Shown here piece by piece: positions 1 through 5,140 of a stretch of DNA of 5,140 nt. Source of the stretch: a virus; the UHGV virus genome UHGV-0391423. The stretch is one strand, 5' to 3'. The stretch's first letter is position 1; every line of letters begins with the position of its first letter. The position numbers were made by a program, and so were the translations under genes. The notes under the pieces were generated by a model, which made no database searches, was not told the origin of the DNA, and saw only the letters and a list, made by a program, of their open reading frames with translations.

Positions 1-241
1 ACCGCTCAATCTGTGCTTGAGAACCAGCAGGGGTACTAGCTCCACTACTCGCATTATCCACCGCAAGTAAAGGATTTAAACCAGCATTTCTTAAGTCTTG
101 CATACGCCGACTTATAGAAGTATTGCTCATTTGCTCCTGCCATTCTCTATTCTTTTGTGCCTCATGCTTAGCACTGTTATTACCAAGTATTGTTGAAGCA
201 ATACCGCCAATAGCACCAGCGATACCGCCAAATAAACCCAT
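1..241 (-). CDS. VP2 minor capsid / DNA pilot protein, N-terminal 80 codons. It runs off the left edge and continues in frame at 5140..4617 if the molecule is circular. Hand translation from the ATG at 241..239: MGLFGGIAGAIGGIASTILGNNSAKHEAQKNREWQEQMSNTSISRRMQDLRNAGLNPLLAVDNASSGASTPAGSQAQIER
   Basis: Hand translation of the minus strand. The Gly/Ala-rich N-terminus is followed by MSNTxxxxRxxDLxxAGLNPxLA, which I recall as the signature of gokushovirus VP2 pilot proteins. An in-frame TAG sits at 253..251 and the upstream sequence ataGGTAGGTGATgtttATG pairs with the anti-SD. Alternative in-frame starts are the GTG at 250 and the ATG at 247. The ORF track missed this piece because the gene is split by the window edge. 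Confidence 0.75.
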   Translation of the reverse strand, partial: MGLFGGIAGAIGGIASTILGNNSAKHEAQKNREWQEQMSNTSISRRMQDLRNAGLNPLLAVDNASSGASTPAGSQAQIER

Positions 242-250
242 AAACATCAC

Positions 251-349
251 CTACCTATTAAAAAAACCTTCAAAACAACTTACCATAAAAACAAGTGAAA
301 ACATTAAAATAAAATACCATTTAATAATTTTTAATATTTTTTCCCACAT
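251..349 (-). CDS. Small hydrophobic peptide 2 (32 aa): MWEKILKIIKWYFILMFSLVFMVSCFEGFFNR. Predicted single-pass membrane peptide and candidate lysis/membrane protein.
   Basis: Hand translation. The SD AGGTGAT sits 4-6 nt upstream (taagAGGTGATgattATG). The stop TAG at 253..251 is directly followed by the VP2 start region. The hydrophobic core is WYFILMFSLVFMVSCF. It falls below the length cutoff of the ORF track. Confidence 0.45.
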   Translation of the reverse strand: MWEKILKIIKWYFILMFSLVFMVSCFEGFFNR

Positions 350-361
350 AATCATCACCTC

Positions 362-460
362 TTATGGTAATTGTAGCACAACTTCTGTTATTTTCCAAAG
401 GAAAAATAAACAACTCATTAATCCCAAGACCATAGCAAAATTTTTAAAGAATGGTTCCAT
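362..460 (-). CDS. Small hydrophobic peptide 1 (32 aa): MEPFFKNFAMVLGLMSCLFFLWKITEVVLQLP. Predicted single-pass membrane peptide and candidate lysis/membrane protein.
   Basis: Hand translation. A near-perfect SD AAGGAGGTG (plus 466-474) lies 5 nt upstream of the ATG at 460..458, and the stop TAA is at 364..362. The hydrophobic core is FAMVLGLMSCLFFLW. It shares a frame with peptide 2 and is separated from it by a single TAA. Confidence 0.5.
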   Translation of the reverse strand: MEPFFKNFAMVLGLMSCLFFLWKITEVVLQLP

Positions 461-465
461 ATAAA

Positions 466-474
466 CACCTCCTT
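466..474 (-). promoter_or_regulatory. Shine-Dalgarno AAGGAGGTG for small peptide 1
   Basis: Plus-strand cacctcctt is AAGGAGGTG on the minus strand, 5 nt before the ATG at 460. This is the strongest SD in the window and lies in the otherwise unannotated Rep-VP2 spacer. Confidence 0.55.
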
Positions 475-514
475 TAATTGAGCATTTTTTATCCAATTGC
501 CAATGTGCAAATTT

Positions 515-1456
515 TTATCTATTTACATTCTTAAAAGAATTGTAAATCTCTCTCTTAATTTTTCCCTGCTGAACATGATAATCATATATCTCTGTCCAGT
601 GTAAACCATACTTAATCATCAATTCCTTATTACACTCTAATATATAATCTTCCATTCTCCGTCTATACTCTAAGTACATTTCATTCAAATGAACATTATC
701 AGAATTTTCAGCATATTTCAAAAAGCTTTTAGGGATTCCAAGCTTTTGACCTCTAGAGTCATATATAAACCCATTAGTAAGAATTTGTTCATAATTTTCT
801 AAAAAATAATCTATTCCTAAAATTTTCTTAGGATAAACAACATAAGGTTTTCTTACAACTTTTCCATTGACTACAAAGTCATCTGATTTAATTTCTGAAA
901 ATTTAGTAATATACTTTACCATATAAGGAGCAGTATGTTCATTAACATCTCCAACATCAACAAACCCAGCTTTCCAAACAGATTCAAGAAATTTTGATTT
1001 ATAACAATTATAACCTTTCTTTGACTTATAAAAATATTTTAAGTCTGAAGGTTTATAGCCAAACATTATCATATGAAAATGAGGTCTACCATTTTTTTCT
1101 CCATACTCTCCAGATACTAAATATTTTATTTTACCTTCAAATCCATGATATTCTAACTTCCTTCTAAGTCTCTTCATAAATTTTTGAAAATAGGTATGAT
1201 TTAAAGAACCATTAGGGAATACCTCTTCCAAATTATCATCATCTACTGTAAGAGTTAAAAAACATATCTCATTATAACTATATTTTGTAAGTTCATATCT
1301 TACTCTTTGAGCAAGTGAAGTCCTCCATTTCTTTTTACACTCTGGACACTTACCACAAGGAACAATAACACTTCTAGTAATATCAGCATCTTTAGGATTG
1401 AACATATATTTATGCTCTGATCTATCCCAATAGATTTTTAAAGGAGACATACACAT
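515..1456 (-). CDS. Replication initiation protein (VP4 / phiX174 gpA-like HUH rolling-circle endonuclease), 313 aa
   Basis: The translation carries RCR motif I FLTLTVDD, motif II (HUH) RPHFHMIMFG and motif III with paired tyrosines APYMVKYITK, which resembles YVAKYVNK of phiX174 A. The N-terminal CGKCPECKKKW is the CxxC zinc-ribbon typical of microvirus Rep. The SD is AGGAGttgaagagtaATG. The start ATG at 1456..1454 shares an A with the TAA of the upstream ORF (TAATG). Confidence 0.9.
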   Translation of the reverse strand: MCMSPLKIYWDRSEHKYMFNPKDADITRSVIVPCGKCPECKKKWRTSLAQRVRYELTKYSYNEICFLTLTVDDDNLEEVFPNGSLNHTYFQKFMKRLRRKLEYHGFEGKIKYLVSGEYGEKNGRPHFHMIMFGYKPSDLKYFYKSKKGYNCYKSKFLESVWKAGFVDVGDVNEHTAPYMVKYITKFSEIKSDDFVVNGKVVRKPYVVYPKKILGIDYFLENYEQILTNGFIYDSRGQKLGIPKSFLKYAENSDNVHLNEMYLEYRRRMEDYILECNKELMIKYGLHWTEIYDYHVQQGKIKREIYNSFKNVNR

Positions 1457-1713
1457 TACTCTTCAACTCCTATAACATTATATCTAATACTTAAATACAT
1501 ATCTTCAAAAGCATAAAATTCTATAAAACATTTTCTATCTGCTTTGAAAGCTTCAAACAAAGTTTTTAAACGTTCAATTCTATCAAAACTATACAATATT
1601 CTAATATTTAACACTCCAGGTTCTTTACAATCAAAAAAAGCTGGAAAATCCTCTTCATGTAAAATTTCAAAAAAAGACTGTAATTCTTTAAAATAGTAAT
1701 ATGCGAACATCAT
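1456..1713 (-). CDS. Hypothetical 85-aa protein, aromatic and acidic, translationally coupled to Rep
   Basis: The SD AGAGGTG is followed by T8 and then ATGATG at 1713/1710. The stop TAA overlaps the Rep ATG by 1 nt. I recognise no motif. Gene packing supports it being real. Confidence 0.55.
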   Translation of the reverse strand: MMFAYYYFKELQSFFEILHEEDFPAFFDCKEPGVLNIRILYSFDRIERLKTLFEAFKADRKCFIEFYAFEDMYLSIRYNVIGVEE

Positions 1714-1740
1714 AAAAAAAACACCTCTTATTATATATTG

Positions 1741-1768
1741 TGTATATAATTAATAAAAGATGTGTAAA
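1741..1768 (-). promoter_or_regulatory. Candidate sigma70-like promoter TTTACA-N16-TATACA for the orf85-Rep-...operon
   Basis: On the minus strand the sequence is tatTTTACAca tcttttattaatta TATACA caatatataataAGAGGTG. The -35 matches 5/6, the -10 matches 4/6 and the spacer is 16. The region is very AT-rich, so chance matches are likely. Confidence 0.2.
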
Positions 1769-1841
1769 TATTATAAAATTCGTTTGAAAAAATAACAATT
1801 TAGCGTAAAATTAACATTATATTTAGTTTAGTTAACTGATG

Positions 1842-1878
1842 GGACTAAATAATAATTATTTTAGATAATTTTTAACTA
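1842..1878. repeat. Direct repeat family in the non-coding region. ACTAA(AT)AATAATTATTTTA[G/A]ATAATTTTT occurs at about 1845-1876 and again at about 2052-2080. GGACTAAAT also occurs at 1842-1850 and 1892-1900, and GGGAAGAAA at 1883-1891 and 2001-2009.
   Basis: By eye, taataattattttagataattttt (1850-1874) and taataattattttaaataattttt (2057-2080) differ at one position, and the shorter exact repeats are as listed. Confidence 0.6.
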
Positions 1879-1963
1879 GAATGGGAAGAAAGGACTAAAT
1901 TAAAATCTTCTCAAACTACCTTTAAATAATACTTAGAACAAATTTTATTAAATTTTGTGTCAA

Positions 1964-1997
1964 GGGGGCTTATATAAAACAAGGAATATAAGCCCCC
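1964..1997. repeat. Perfect 12-bp inverted repeat (GGGGGCTTATAT / ATATAAGCCCCC) with a 10-nt loop. A GC-clamped hairpin in an AT-rich non-coding region.
   Basis: 1964-1975 is the exact reverse complement of 1986-1997, and the loop is aaaacaagga. It is flanked by more G/C-tract islands, gggaagaaaccccctcgg at 2001-2018. Confidence 0.85.
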
Positions 1998-2165
1998 TTT
2001 GGGAAGAAACCCCCTCGGTAATAATTATATACCATTTTTTTCTTAAAAAGTCAACTAATAATTATTTTAAATAATTTTTGAAGTTAGCGGACTTTTTAGC
2101 GGAGCTAAAGACGGCACAGTTACATTAATTTTATTTATAGTTTTTTGAGTGCCTCTCCGCACTTT

Positions 2166-2194
2166 AGTAAAAGAAAAAGCACCCTTTCGGGTGC
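2166..2194 (-). terminator. Rho-independent terminator downstream of the 166-aa gene. On the minus strand it reads GCACCC-GAAA-GGGTGC followed by TTTTTCTTTTACT.
   Basis: A 6-bp GC stem (2179-2184 / 2189-2194) with a GAAA tetraloop on the minus strand is followed by a T-run, the complement of plus aagaaaaa at 2171-2178. It lies 13 nt after the TAA at 2210..2208. Confidence 0.6.
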
Positions 2195-2207
2195 GGTATA
2201 GGGAAAG

Positions 2208-2708
2208 TTATGCTTTTGGTGTCTTATCATCAACAACTGGTTGTTCCACAGGCAACTCTGGAAGAGTAGTAACATCTTGAGGCTTTTCATAAATTTTTCC
2301 ATCCTCAATTTGATAATTATCTGGGTTACTACAATATTCAAAAAACTTTTGAGGAGTTCCAAACATTCCTCTTGTCTTTTCATCCAAATGTAAAAATTTT
2401 CTCTCAATCTTAGCTTTCTCATTTTGCCAATCTTCAAAAGTCCATGAACTAGTTTCATAATTATTCATATCATAAACTGGAGTTCTCGGAGTTCCTCTAT
2501 AATTTACTAACAACTGTTCTATTTCACACATTGACTTAAAACTTTGGTCGGTCAAACTCTCCATGTTATTTACTGTACCACTGATTTTAGGCCAACTTTC
2601 TTTATTCCAATAGGTTGCAAATCTAGGAATTTTAACTTCTTCTTCAACTGAATTTAAAGTACTTTTTTTAGAAACTTCCAAAACATCACTAACTTTTTTT
2701 AATTTCAT
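2208..2708 (-). CDS. Hypothetical acidic 166-aa protein immediately downstream of VP1. It may be an internal scaffolding protein (VP3-like), but this is unconfirmed.
   Basis: A strong SD AAGGAGGT lies 8 nt upstream of the ATG at 2708 and begins right after the VP1 TAG. The protein is D/E-rich. I recognise no motif, and the positional guess rests on the VP1-adjacent location. Confidence 0.6.
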   Translation of the reverse strand: MKLKKVSDVLEVSKKSTLNSVEEEVKIPRFATYWNKESWPKISGTVNNMESLTDQSFKSMCEIEQLLVNYRGTPRTPVYDMNNYETSSWTFEDWQNEKAKIERKFLHLDEKTRGMFGTPQKFFEYCSNPDNYQIEDGKIYEKPQDVTTLPELPVEQPVVDDKTPKA

Positions 2709-2725
2709 ACCAAAATACCTCCTTT

Positions 2726-4348
2726 CTATATTCTACCAGCTAAAAGACTTGGATTTGATGAAACAGGTAGAGGTCTAGTTGCTTTAATATCAAACCAAAT
2801 ATCAGTAATAATATCTGGCTCATCAGGAGCACTTAACACTCTATCTATAGGAGTAGCACACTGGATAAACTCTCCATTTAATTTAGGTAAAGTTTCAAAT
2901 TTTTCTGCCAAATGCCACACATCAAGAGAACCTTCTACACCACTTCTCATCTTACCAGTAATTTTATTAATACCTTCTCTTAACTCTCTATATCTTTCTT
3001 GATAACCAAATACAGCTTCATTGGTTGCCTTATCTGGAGATAAGAAAATTTCCTTATTATAAACTGCTTGGTCTCCTAAGTTCCAGAAAGCAGGATTCAT
3101 ATAATCATACCTAGAAAGCTTATTAAACTTTCTCGCTACACCTTGTTGATATGTTACATCAGCACTAGCACAAGCTACAATCATAAATATACCATGTTCC
3201 ACTGCAGATATTTCGCATAATTCCTTATTACCTTGTCCAACTCCAATACCTGTAAGATTTCCTTGAGGAGAAACTTCATTTGTACTTGAATTTTGAACAA
3301 CAGGATTAACTATTATATCAACATTAGCACTTCCTAAATACTGACTTCTACCTAACAGAAAATCTGGACAAGTCACATTATAGTGCATTTTAACTAACTC
3401 TGGGTATCTCTCACCAGCTCTTGCATCTCTTTCAAGCAACACTTGTAATGCACTTGCTTTCCTTAATGCTTCAATAGATACTCCAGTTACTCTCGACATA
3501 TCAGCATATAGATGAGTATCAATATTACTTACACGACCAATGTCTCTAGCTCTCAAAACGTTATCTCCTCCACCGATGTAAGCAGTACTAACATTTTGAA
3601 CTAAAGAACCAGTATCAGAAAAAGTATTAATCCTAGTAACTTCAACACCAGTCATAACAGGAGCATTACCAGTCAAAGGTATCATCACTTCCTCTCCTGC
3701 TTGAGGATATGGTAAGCATGATGTAAAATAATCTAAAGGTTTTCCCTTCTTAAGTATCTTATATGTTGCTAAAGTATCTTTACTTTCTGCAGGGTCTCCA
3801 GATAAATTATCACCTGTATATTCCTTTAAAGGCTCTTGGAGTTCTGAAGCTCTAAACCAATCATTGAAAATTTTATTGTAAGCTCTAAAAGGTAAAACAG
3901 ATACCGAGTAGTCACAAGTTGTCCCAGTGGGCGGACATCCTAAATAGTCTCCGAGACCACCAACTGTATTCTCTGCTACTTTCATATTTAATTGAGGTAC
4001 TAAATAATCTACCTTATCATCTTGCCACTGCTTCTCACCCATAAAATTTAAAAAATGCTTCCATAAAAGTCTATTAGGTATCCAAAAAGCCATAAACTTT
4101 AATTTAACATTATCCATAACTGGGGAAATCATAGGCATAAGTCTACAAACACTTGCCACGGATACCTCGAAATGGTCTCCTGGGGATAACTCTTCCCAAT
4201 ATACAGGATAGATATTATCAAAATCAAAACAAGTTTTTAATCCTTCTGATAAATTAAAAGTTGACTTCATACCTTTTGCTTGGGGCAAGATATTACTGTC
4301 AAGAATAACCTCATTAGGCATTTTCATTGTAAAATTAGCATTATTCAT
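2726..4348 (-). CDS. Major capsid protein VP1 (Microviridae F-protein family, gokushovirus-like size), 540 aa
   Basis: The length and the N-terminal region (...FDFDNIYPVYWEELSPGDHFEVS...MPMISPVMDNVKLKFMAFWIPNRLLW...) match microvirus major capsid proteins as I recall them. The RBS is strong, GGAAGGAGAG followed by 8 nt and then ATG. The stop TAG is at 2728..2726. Confidence 0.85.
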   Translation of the reverse strand: MNNANFTMKMPNEVILDSNILPQAKGMKSTFNLSEGLKTCFDFDNIYPVYWEELSPGDHFEVSVASVCRLMPMISPVMDNVKLKFMAFWIPNRLLWKHFLNFMGEKQWQDDKVDYLVPQLNMKVAENTVGGLGDYLGCPPTGTTCDYSVSVLPFRAYNKIFNDWFRASELQEPLKEYTGDNLSGDPAESKDTLATYKILKKGKPLDYFTSCLPYPQAGEEVMIPLTGNAPVMTGVEVTRINTFSDTGSLVQNVSTAYIGGGDNVLRARDIGRVSNIDTHLYADMSRVTGVSIEALRKASALQVLLERDARAGERYPELVKMHYNVTCPDFLLGRSQYLGSANVDIIVNPVVQNSSTNEVSPQGNLTGIGVGQGNKELCEISAVEHGIFMIVACASADVTYQQGVARKFNKLSRYDYMNPAFWNLGDQAVYNKEIFLSPDKATNEAVFGYQERYRELREGINKITGKMRSGVEGSLDVWHLAEKFETLPKLNGEFIQCATPIDRVLSAPDEPDIITDIWFDIKATRPLPVSSNPSLLAGRI

Positions 4349-4447
4349 CTAAAAAACTCTCCTTCCGCCTCTTGTGTCTGGAACAAAGGCTTGTTGATAT
4401 AAAAAGGTTCTACTAAATTGTACTCTTCTAGCTCTATTTATTCTCAT
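4349..4447 (-). CDS. Small arginine-rich peptide (31 aa): MRINRARRVQFSRTFLYQQAFVPDTRGGRRVF. Candidate DNA-binding/packaging protein, analogous to phiX174 J or gokushovirus ORF8.
   Basis: Hand translation. The SD AGGAGAG lies 8 nt upstream of the ATG at 4447. Eight of the 31 residues are Arg. The stop TAG at 4351..4349 abuts the VP1 ATG (TAGATG). Its position immediately 5' of the major capsid gene matches that of J in phiX174. It falls below the ORF-track cutoff. Confidence 0.5.
   Translation of the reverse strand: MRINRARRVQFSRTFLYQQAFVPDTRGGRRVF
4357..4366 (-). promoter_or_regulatory. Shine-Dalgarno GGAAGGAGAG for VP1, embedded in the coding sequence of the upstream 31-aa ORF
   Basis: Plus-strand ctctccttcc is GGAAGGAGAG on the minus strand, 8 nt before the ATG at 4348. 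Confidence 0.6.
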
Positions 4448-4452
4448 TTTTT

Positions 4453-4620
4453 TCACTCTCCTTTTTCTGTTTCTTGTTTTTCAATCCCCTTAATAACTTT
4501 AATACTTCCCACAATAAATTGAGAAAACGACAAATTGAACTCTTCATCTTTTATAAATCCTCCCTTTTGTAATTTCTTTAATGTAAAATATCCTATTACC
4601 AAATCAATAACATCTTTCAT
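4453..4620 (-). CDS. Hypothetical 55-aa protein: MKDVIDLVIGYFTLKKLQKGGFIKDEEFNLSFSQFIVGSIKVIKGIEKQETEKGE
   Basis: Hand translation. The ATG at 4620..4618 overlaps the VP2 TGA stop (ATGA). The SD-like AGGAGA lies 11 nt upstream. The stop TGA at 4455..4453 sits inside the SD of the next ORF. The spacing is suboptimal and I recognise no motif. Confidence 0.35.
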   Translation of the reverse strand: MKDVIDLVIGYFTLKKLQKGGFIKDEEFNLSFSQFIVGSIKVIKGIEKQETEKGE

Positions 4621-5140
4621 TTGTTATAATTTCTCCTTTCTCTATTCTTCTTACTCTCACTCCAAAATCTCTTAGCAGAATTCCAACCATTATCTAAAAA
4701 ACGACCAACAGCTGCTCCAACTCTATTACCAAAATATTCAACATTTCCAGCAGCACCAGAACCTGGCATTCCTTTCCAAATATCACCACGTTTTTCTCTT
4801 TCTTTTAAATCCGGATTATTAGAATAAACACCAACTTCAAAATCTAATAACTGAATTTTTCTCTTAGCTTCCTCAGTAGACATTTTAATACCTTCAGCTT
4901 GTGCCTTATGCACCAAAATTCTAGCTTTACTCTCTAAAGTATTAGCTTTATTTAATTCCTGAACTGTCTTTTCAGTCAATATACCTTGCCTTTGCATTTC
5001 TGCCTCAAGTTTTAACTTCTCAGCCTTAACATCAAATATACTATTCTCATTTTGTATTGACTTTGTCTGTTCATCAATCTGTCTAGCCTGTGCATTTGCT
5101 ACCTTAGCAGAAGAAAGAGCGGTCAACCAACTAGGGTCAA
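4617..5140 (-). CDS. VP2 minor capsid / DNA pilot protein, C-terminal part. This is the 169-aa ORF of the track plus 14 nt to the window edge. It has a coiled-coil-like middle section and a Gly-rich C-terminus, and ends with a TGA stop at 4619..4617.
   Basis: The ORF track lists 4617..5126. Its leading M is really a TTG codon, which is internal once the frame is extended. Reading on through 5138..5127 and the junction codon formed by position 1 plus 5140 and 5139 (TTT, Phe) gives ...IER-F-DPSWL-TALSS... with no stop. The frame matches the 241..2 piece exactly. Confidence 0.75.
   Translation of the reverse strand, partial: DPSWLTALSSAKVANAQARQIDEQTKSIQNENSIFDVKAEKLKLEAEMQRQGILTEKTVQELNKANTLESKARILVHKAQAEGIKMSTEEAKRKIQLLDFEVGVYSNNPDLKEREKRGDIWKGMPGSGAAGNVEYFGNRVGAAVGRFLDNGWNSAKRFWSESKKNRERRNYNK

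Follow-up and report, generated by a model that had tools for sequence, protein, structure and literature searches.

A probably temperate gokushovirus-like microvirus of the Fusobacteriaceae carrying a mimic of a dif-like host site

Lysogenic microviruses that exploit the Xer recombination machinery of their hosts already constitute a known class. In the enterobacterial gokushovirus EC6098, integration at dif via XerC/XerD has been shown experimentally and requires host XerC together with a phage dif-motif with intact XerC- and XerD-binding sites; a xerD knockout gave no lysogens, complementation of the knockout gave no rescue, and no gokushovirus prophages outside the enterobacteria were reported (Kirchberger and Ochman 2020, eLife, PMC7062461). 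The Bacteroidetes microvirus proviruses BMV1-7, which belong to the Alpavirinae, possess dif-like attachment (att) sites and have been proposed to use the dimer-resolution system of the host (Krupovic and Forterre 2011, PMC3091885). Here we describe the virus genome UHGV-0391423, a stretch of 5,140 nucleotides (nt) hereafter called the window, by which we mean the whole of the DNA that was analyzed. We consider it likely that it represents a complete temperate gokushovirus-like microvirus of a Fusobacteriaceae host, which lacks a recombinase of its own and integrates by means of a mimic of a host site that is recombined at a dif-like locus adjacent to an Xer-family gene.

Comparable strategies are also seen in the filamentous single-stranded DNA (ssDNA) phages CTXphi, VGJphi and TLCphi of Vibrio, which integrate at dif through the host XerC/XerD, the phage attachment site (attP) of CTXphi being a folded ssDNA built from two inverted sites. 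Certain Xer modules operate with a single recombinase, as is the case with XerS/difSL in streptococci and lactococci, XerH/difH in epsilon-proteobacteria, and XerA/dif in archaea.

Like EC6098, the window is a small gokushovirus-type genome that lacks an integrase and has a dif-like motif of its own in a non-coding region; in both cases the integrated copies have a conserved dif-like site at one end and a more degenerate one at the other, and circular free forms occur alongside them. The two differ in that the host here is a member of the Fusobacteriaceae and the system is described from sequence data, in that 16-17-nt perfectly inverted arms around TGTTAA/TTAACA are seen in place of the asymmetric 28-bp XerC/XerD dif, and in that an Xer-family gene is situated ~190 nt from the site and the viral gene order is VP4-VP2-VP1-VP3. 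With BMV1-7 the present system shares the occurrence of integrase-less microvirus proviruses with dif-like flanks and the definition of the att site against a provirus-free relative. However, the microvirus lineage, the host phylum and the att sequence are different, with the att of the BMVs being a direct repeat of 13 bp that forms part of a dif-like consensus; moreover, some BMVs have an additional dif-like site, whereas none was found in the window. The resemblance to the Vibrio phages lies in an ssDNA phage whose attP has a defective arm, a feature of the TLC and VGJ types, but those phages are filamentous members of the Inoviridae, whereas the window is of the icosahedral microvirus type and no second att site was found in it. 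Finally, as in the XerS, XerH and XerA modules, a host Xer-family gene lies near a palindrome at which strand bias switches, the inner ATATAA-N6-TTATAT of this palindrome resembles dif cores, and the best profile and structure matches of the enzyme are to XerA; unlike in those modules, the host enzyme misses the curated cut-offs and the adjacency is not seen in distant Fusobacteriaceae.

As a microvirus genome the window is ordinary, and its points of difference are the host phylum, the long perfectly inverted arms and the recombinase gene adjoining the site. The literature searched yielded no account of dif or of dimer resolution in Fusobacteria, of a microvirus prophage in the phylum Fusobacteriota, or, for that phylum, of a single recombinase encoded beside its site. 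The missing integrase gene is a signature of the Xer-exploiting class (IMEX), of which the window and its integrated relatives also display the attP and the hybrid left and right attachment sites (attL and attR).

A complete circular genome opened within the VP2 gene

The numbering of the window opens inside the gene for VP2, the DNA pilot protein, and on account of this linearization the gene shows as two pieces that join in frame. The start of VP2 is a minus-strand ATG (241-239), preceded at 5 nt by an AGGTGA ribosome-binding site, and the nearest in-frame stop upstream is 3 codons off. Its 5' part (1..241, minus strand) runs for 241 nt, that is, from the ATG through 80 codons to the first base of codon 81, which is completed across the join as T(1)+T(5140)+T(5139) to give TTT, coding for Phe81. 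The 3' part (4617..5140, minus strand) begins with the last two bases of this codon (5140, 5139) and continues for 173 further open codons up to the stop at 4619-4617. The joined gene thus measures 765 nt and encodes a protein of 254 amino acids (aa). PHROG profiles for pilot proteins for DNA ejection cover its residues 7-173 unbroken across residue 81 (best E = 1e-24), and in tblastn searches, which yielded VP2 matches in 616 phage records, residues 1-190 align as one piece with the annotated VP2 of MG945222 (47% identity, E = 1e-35); no Pfam model matched VP2. The 169-aa open reading frame (ORF) listed at 4617..5126 starts with a TTG that is internal to the VP2 frame, and is therefore an artefact of the ORF finder, as the preliminary description of this DNA had recognized.

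An exact look-up of the major capsid protein VP1 retrieved three contigs, namely a long scaffold (L001) considered below and two Logan assemblies from different runs (L002 and L003). The latter are 5,170 nt each, corresponding to 5,140 nt plus an exact 30-nt terminal overlap, and are 100% identical to the window with differing breakpoints. No terminal repeat was found in the window itself, consistent with a trimmed overlap. Bases 5140 and 1 adjoin within the contig in all three of these independent assemblies, and gene calls on each of them return one single 254-aa VP2. Hence, both central proposals of the preliminary description, the in-frame closure of the circle by a 254-aa VP2 and the completeness of the genome, are borne out: the coordinates of the join are correct, the pilot-protein profiles and tblastn homology span it, and the overlapping contigs confirm one complete 5,140-nt circular microvirus genome cut open in VP2. 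The converse view, wherein the window would be cut from a larger element or prophage and the frame closed by coincidence, is refuted, and we assign it a practically negligible probability: the same 5,140-nt unit emerges from contigs broken at different points, the homology is continuous over the join, and the integrated relatives in L021 and L022 are single genome-length units of 5,162 and 5,217 nt rather than pieces of something larger.

Integrated copies and the viral attachment site

Five independent integrated copies of the virus or its relatives (L001, L020, L021, L022 and L029) were recovered from different samples and pipelines, comprising ENA scaffolds, Logan contigs and an IMG/VR contig. 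L001, an ENA scaffold of 22,872 nt, carries the window from 1744 to 1 and on from 5140 to 1809 at 100% identity, after which it continues into bacterial genes: that for a 325-aa tyrosine recombinase comes first, at a distance of 182 nt, and is followed by rsuA, a nitroreductase gene, nfo and a gene for a Fic protein. The virus/host break falls in the 494-nt viral non-coding region, and the junction is made up of a host arm, a spacer and viral sequence. The integrated relatives are overall 70-99% identical to the window. Two of them, L021 (24.8 kb) and L022 (16.7 kb), were reached from two further samples through a look-up of an 85-aa protein encoded upstream of the viral replication gene. In each, a related microvirus is present in full length, with segments that are 89-99% identical to the window; this prophage is preceded by the host genes nagB, nagA and two BD-FAE genes and followed by the recombinase gene and rsuA. 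In both, attL consists of a host arm, TGTTAA and a degenerate viral arm, while attR consists of a viral arm, TGTTAA and a host arm (TTATATGTGGTTTGG); the distances from the attL to the attR spacer, 5,162 and 5,217 nt, amount to one genome unit. L020, an IMG/VR contig, encodes a VP1 that is 75% identical to that of the window and has its attR, with the spacer TATTAA, beside the gene for a 332-aa orthologue of the recombinase. An exact-pattern scan with the viral arm and spacer recovered L029 from metagenome contigs, with attL within the contig and attR at its end; the same scan of IMG/VR gave no matches. In all, both junctions are present in L021, L022 and L029, and attR only in L001 and L020.

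The empty bacterial site (attB) is seen on five contigs, of which L007, L008, L010 and L011 were reached via recombinase homologues (92-94% identity) on virus-free contigs and the fifth is L028. In L007 and L008 it reads AACCAAACCAAATATAA-TTAACA-TTATATTTGGTTTGGTT, with perfect 17-nt inverted arms around the 6-nt spacer, and in L010 and L011 CCGCATATAA-TTAACA-TTATATGTGG. Together, these loci show that the virus or its close relatives are inserted at a host palindromic site with reciprocal hybrid junctions, and that the lineage is temperate.

The window contains the viral counterpart of this site in the form of a dif-like attP (1796..1833, minus strand). In the virus sense, from 1833 to 1796, it comprises a 17-nt host-like arm, AACTAAACTAAATATAA (1833-1817), the 6-nt spacer TGTTAA (1816-1811) and a degenerate 15-nt arm, TTTTACGCTAAATTG (1810-1796), which agree with the host at 14-15 of 17, all 6 and 7 of 15 positions, respectively. 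Taken together, the viral arm and spacer agree with the uninfected host site in 21 of their 23 positions; when up to 3 mismatches were allowed, 200 shuffled versions of the window yielded no match at all. The sequences of virus and host part at 1808/1809 in the integrated copy. The attP is also found on five contigs without host sequence (L002, L003, L024, L017 and L018), and among the relatives on L017, L018 and L024 its host-like arm and spacer are retained, with a second arm that varies (for instance, TTTTCTGA and TTAAAGGA in L017 and L018).

These results call for a revision of the preliminary description, which had reported no attachment-site-like repeats and had by implication regarded the virus as something other than a prophage; the attP and the five integrated assemblies show otherwise on both counts. 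It had further taken any host DNA beyond the ends of the window as a sign of a sub-fragment. Such DNA does flank the virus in the five assemblies, but the junction lies at 1809-1816 and not at 5140/1, which bespeaks a temperate lifestyle and leaves the circle unbroken. Its observation that no integrase gene is present stands, as none of the nine ORFs scanned against Pfam and PHROGs (the minus-strand gene ORFs of at least 40 aa, plus those of 35 and 32 aa) matched a recombinase or integrase family.

Certain observations weigh against integration, and would be accommodated by a strictly lytic or episomal virus whose adjacencies to host DNA are chimeric assemblies generated via a short shared AT-rich word. 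Every virus-host junction derives from a metagenome assembly; the exact window genome is represented by attR only, with L001 ending inside the virus at window position 1744, ~65 nt short of the expected attL; and a search for attP found none in the closest GenBank relatives (MG945195, MG945222, MG945371 and KT264834), nor in L006 and L019. The stop of L001 inside the virus could be an assembly-graph branch arising from coexisting circular and integrated forms, and the lack of attP in the nearest GenBank relatives implies that lysogeny is a trait of a sub-lineage only. Against chimerism, the five assemblies are independent in sample and pipeline, and yet every junction falls in one and the same host locus, in the middle of a palindrome of the recombinase-site type, with the reciprocal hybrid attL and attR bracketing exactly one genome length. 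Moreover, the exact sequence common to attP and attB is only ~14-16 nt, which is below the usual k-mers of assemblers, and in L020 a divergent virus is inserted into a divergent host at the orthologous site, the spacer of which is TATTAA instead. Chimeric assembly is, in our estimate, very improbable.

We also looked in the window for a second inverted dif-like site, as in the folded ssDNA attP of CTXphi. Only 2 loose matches were obtained against 1.5 expected, one of them being attP itself, and with matches at the level of chance a structure of this type was rejected.

The host recombinase gene and the adjacent chromosomal site

The identity of the host rests on the proteins encoded in the flanks. 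All named homologues of the recombinase among the top 120 matches (62-94% identity) come from Fusobacterium or Cetobacterium, which shows the host to be an uncultured Fusobacterium-like member of the Fusobacteriaceae. The neighboring rsuA is kept across genera, and this synteny indicates that the recombinase is encoded by a core chromosomal gene rather than by part of a mobile element. Its best NCBIfam profiles are XerA, XerD and XerC, and its best matches in the PDB are the archaeal XerA (4a8e, 5hxy) and the E. coli XerD (1a0p). As it scores below all the curated Xer cut-offs (128 bits against 220 for XerA, 125 against 330 for XerD, 113 against 335 for XerC and 88 against 267 for XerS), it can be named only as a member of the Xer family.

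The host site is a palindrome with perfect or near-perfect inverted arms of 16-17 nt, as opposed to a 28-bp dif with distinct XerC and XerD arms. It lies ~180-200 nt downstream of the recombinase gene in L001, L007, L010, L020, L021, L022 and L028, with recombinases down to 78% identity. In the more distant Fusobacteriaceae L012-L016 (62-64% identity), a search of the 10 kb around the orthologous gene revealed no such site, and hence the adjacency of gene and site is not generalizable to the family. In L007, L021 and L028, the genes on either side are oriented towards the site, where the GC skew also changes sign; in L028 the cumulative skew peaks at the site and 10 of the 10 downstream genes are on the minus strand. 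A replication terminus with its dif site would look like this, although the skew switch is confounded with gene orientation and hence with the direction of transcription. Calculated per gene, the skew is only weakly negative in the minus-strand genes of the left side but fully positive in a plus-strand gene of the right side, a pattern that does not separate replication bias from transcription bias.

Based on the architecture of these sites, we propose that the double-stranded replicative form of the virus would recombine with the palindromic dif-like host site under the action of a tyrosine recombinase of the host, for which the Xer-family enzyme encoded ~190 nt away is the simplest candidate, with strand exchange probably taking place within the shared 6-nt spacer. 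Integration would thereby generate a near-perfect palindromic attR (viral arm, spacer, host arm) on the side of the recombinase gene and a crippled attL (host arm, spacer, degenerate viral arm) on the other. With a good palindromic attR beside the recombinase gene, the function of the site for the host could be preserved, and with the spacer retained in both attL and attR, excision back to the circle should be possible. The site would be the dimer-resolution site of the chromosome, and the reaction would be reversible. We tentatively extend this to a more specific scenario, which has a reasonable chance of being correct but falls short of being probable: the site may serve as the dimer-resolution site of this Fusobacteriaceae clade in conjunction with the one adjacent recombinase, such that the microvirus would lysogenize by hijacking a single-recombinase Xer system.

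The catalyst might, however, lie elsewhere. Integration could be real with the adjacent Xer-like gene having no part in it and the site not being the chromosomal dif, the reaction being carried out by another host recombinase, such as a canonical XerC/XerD pair encoded elsewhere, or by a separate non-dif module. The scores of the adjacent enzyme below every curated Xer cut-off, the lack of the site beside the orthologues in more distant Fusobacteriaceae, and the confounding of the replication-terminus evidence with gene orientation would all fit such a scenario. Nevertheless, the gap between gene and site is held at ~180-200 nt in every host of the clade examined, even as the recombinases diverge, and their adjacency corresponds to the known layout of XerS/difSL and XerH/difH. 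Likewise, perfectly palindromic arms of 16-17 nt fit a homodimer of a single recombinase better than a XerC/XerD pair, and three loci show a switch of strand bias at the site. Accordingly, we consider the involvement of a different recombinase unlikely, albeit with enough weight to be kept in sight.

A viral catalyst is conceivable too, in that VP4, the rolling-circle replication initiator (Rep), is the sole DNA-cleaving and -joining enzyme encoded by the virus, and HUH endonucleases of its kind drive integration in some other systems. In that event, Rep would nick and join at the site. However, a 6-nt spacer enclosed by inverted arms, with crossover in or beside the spacer, is the design of a tyrosine-recombinase core site, and the inner ATAA-N6-TTAT is common to this site and dif sites. 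Further, it is the virus that mimics a pre-existing host palindrome, and not the host that mimics a viral origin, and the experimental gokushovirus precedent is Xer-dependent (PMC7062461). Rep-mediated integration is therefore exceedingly improbable, and a host recombinase, most simply the adjacent Xer-family enzyme, remains our preferred catalyst.

As a separate observation on the hosts, the uninfected Fusobacteriaceae scaffold L028 carries clustered regularly interspaced short palindromic repeat (CRISPR)-associated genes, including those for RAMP and Cas6 proteins, at 764-2653, ~8 kb from the dif-like site. Spacer arrays in L028-like hosts could connect virus and host by an independent line of evidence.

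Gene content, relatives and implications

All the genes of the window are on the minus strand, with VP1, VP2, VP3, VP4/Rep and a 32-aa basic protein encoded once each, so that the inventory of VP1, Rep and a small basic protein given in the preliminary description is upheld by profile matches and the 32-aa ORF. VP1, the 540-aa major capsid protein (2726..4348), matches PF02305 Phage_F (448 bits, 5.5e-134) and phrog_514 (1.6e-162). The 166-aa internal scaffolding protein VP3 (2208..2708) matches PF09675 Chlamy_scaf (41.8 bits against a cut-off of 25, 1.5e-10) and a PHROG. VP4, the 313-aa Rep (515..1456), is recovered by PF23343 (79 bits against a cut-off of 27.8, 3.5e-22) and phrog_942 (8.6e-73), and displays the HUH motif HFHMI and the tyrosine motif YMVKYITK. 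The 32-aa protein (4349..4447; MRINRARRVQF...), which was also called independently at this length, is highly basic (isoelectric point 12) and is presumed to be a DNA-binding small basic protein.

A 55-aa ORF with no family match (4453..4620) is kept in all relatives, and its ATG overlaps the VP2 stop in the sequence ATGA (4617-4620). Upstream of Rep, the conserved 85-aa ORF (1456..1713) encodes a protein that is identical across the window and the prophages of L021, L022 and L029; its stop and the Rep start have base 1456 in common. These overlaps suggest that the genes may be translationally coupled along one minus-strand transcription unit. The spacer between Rep and VP2 (242-514) harbors a variable module (251..496) of two hydrophobic ORFs, at 362-496 (44 aa) and 251-358 (35 aa), that gave no family matches. 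In the prophages of L021 and L022, which are otherwise 90-95% identical to the window, this spacer carries instead an unalignable 73-aa ORF with two hydrophobic segments (L021 11363-11584), and window positions 258-354 have no alignment with either. They are possibly lysis or superinfection-exclusion genes.

The 494-nt non-coding region (1714..2207, minus strand) combines the attP with hairpins and a promoter-like site. As ssDNA it folds far better than expected (z = -6.2), with none of 100 shuffles folding as well. A perfect 14-bp hairpin (AAGGGGGCTTATAT ... ATATAAGCCCCCTT) at 1962-1999 on the minus strand, with TTGACA immediately after it, is the sole block of this region that distant relatives share (MG945222 and MG945371, at 84% identity), is recognizable in L020 as well, and is a candidate for a complementary-strand origin or packaging signal. 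A terminator-like hairpin is found at 2179-2194. The promoter-like site (TTGTTA, 17 nt, TATAAT; 1770-1798, minus strand) follows immediately on the degenerate attP arm, precedes the operon of the 85-aa ORF and Rep, and is not separated from the viral genes by integration. Sites of this kind are no more numerous in the non-coding region than expected from shuffles.

By its size and its VP1, VP2, VP3 and VP4 proteins, we classify the window as a gokushovirus-like microvirus, taking a circular genome of ~4-6.5 kb as the mark of microviruses and a Chlamy_scaf VP3 as typical of the Gokushovirinae. Its gene order, VP4-VP2-VP1-VP3, departs from the canonical VP4-VP1-VP2 (equivalent to VP1-VP2-VP4 on the circle) and is that described for the Pichovirinae (Roux et al. 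2012). The same order is found in the nearest GenBank records MG945195 and MG945222, which, along with MG945371 and KT264834, are placed in Family 3 / Gokushovirinae A; KT264834 is assigned there to Fusobacterium (Table S1 of Kirchberger et al. 2022, PMC9239249). These four come from dog and pig feces (MG945195, MG945222, MG945371) and from a raccoon (Gokushovirus WZ-2015a, KT264834). They are similar to the window in gene order, in a G+C content near 32-33%, in VP2 (38-47% identity) and in one segment of VP1 with 78% nucleotide identity, but differ from it in their low overall nucleotide similarity and in being devoid of the dif-like attP. A megablast search of GenBank phages with the whole window gave one partial match with 16% coverage and no close deposited relative. 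In MG945222.1 (3885-4316), the gene after VP1 is labeled 'similar to VP2-2', a position that corresponds to the VP3 scaffold gene in the window and MG945195; the label is likely a mis-annotation.

Relative to the window, the L021 virus is 98.8% identical in the non-coding region and the end of VP3, and ~89% in VP1 and VP2, while that of L022 is 98.4% identical in the C-terminal third of VP1 and ~90% in the remainder, with window positions 3511-3655, perhaps a capsid loop, left unaligned. Such strong mosaicism suggests that recombination may be frequent among co-circulating viruses with one common integration site. A VP1 scan of genome contigs found only L006 (CAUWNL010000234.1, 4,790 nt), a stand-alone microvirus contig with a 77% identical VP1 in a metagenome-assembled genome labeled 'uncultured Sarcina sp.'. 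It has no host flank, and its placement in this genome is probably a binning artefact that does not speak for a Gram-positive host.

Our findings correct the annotation of VP2, which is one 254-aa gene rather than a 169-aa ORF with a TTG start and an orphan piece, and furnish a sequence rule for recognizing related prophages, namely a host-like arm, a spacer and a degenerate arm in the non-coding region. They also indicate a candidate Xer/dif module in the Fusobacteriaceae; if the site is indeed served by a single recombinase, the 38-nt attP would be a ready-made cassette for recombinase-free integration in Fusobacterium genetics. Most gut microvirus genomes are without a known host or lifestyle, and here physical integration ties one lineage to an uncultured Fusobacterium-like host. 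Thus, dif-type lysogeny of gokushoviruses is extended beyond the Enterobacteria, where it has been experimentally tested.

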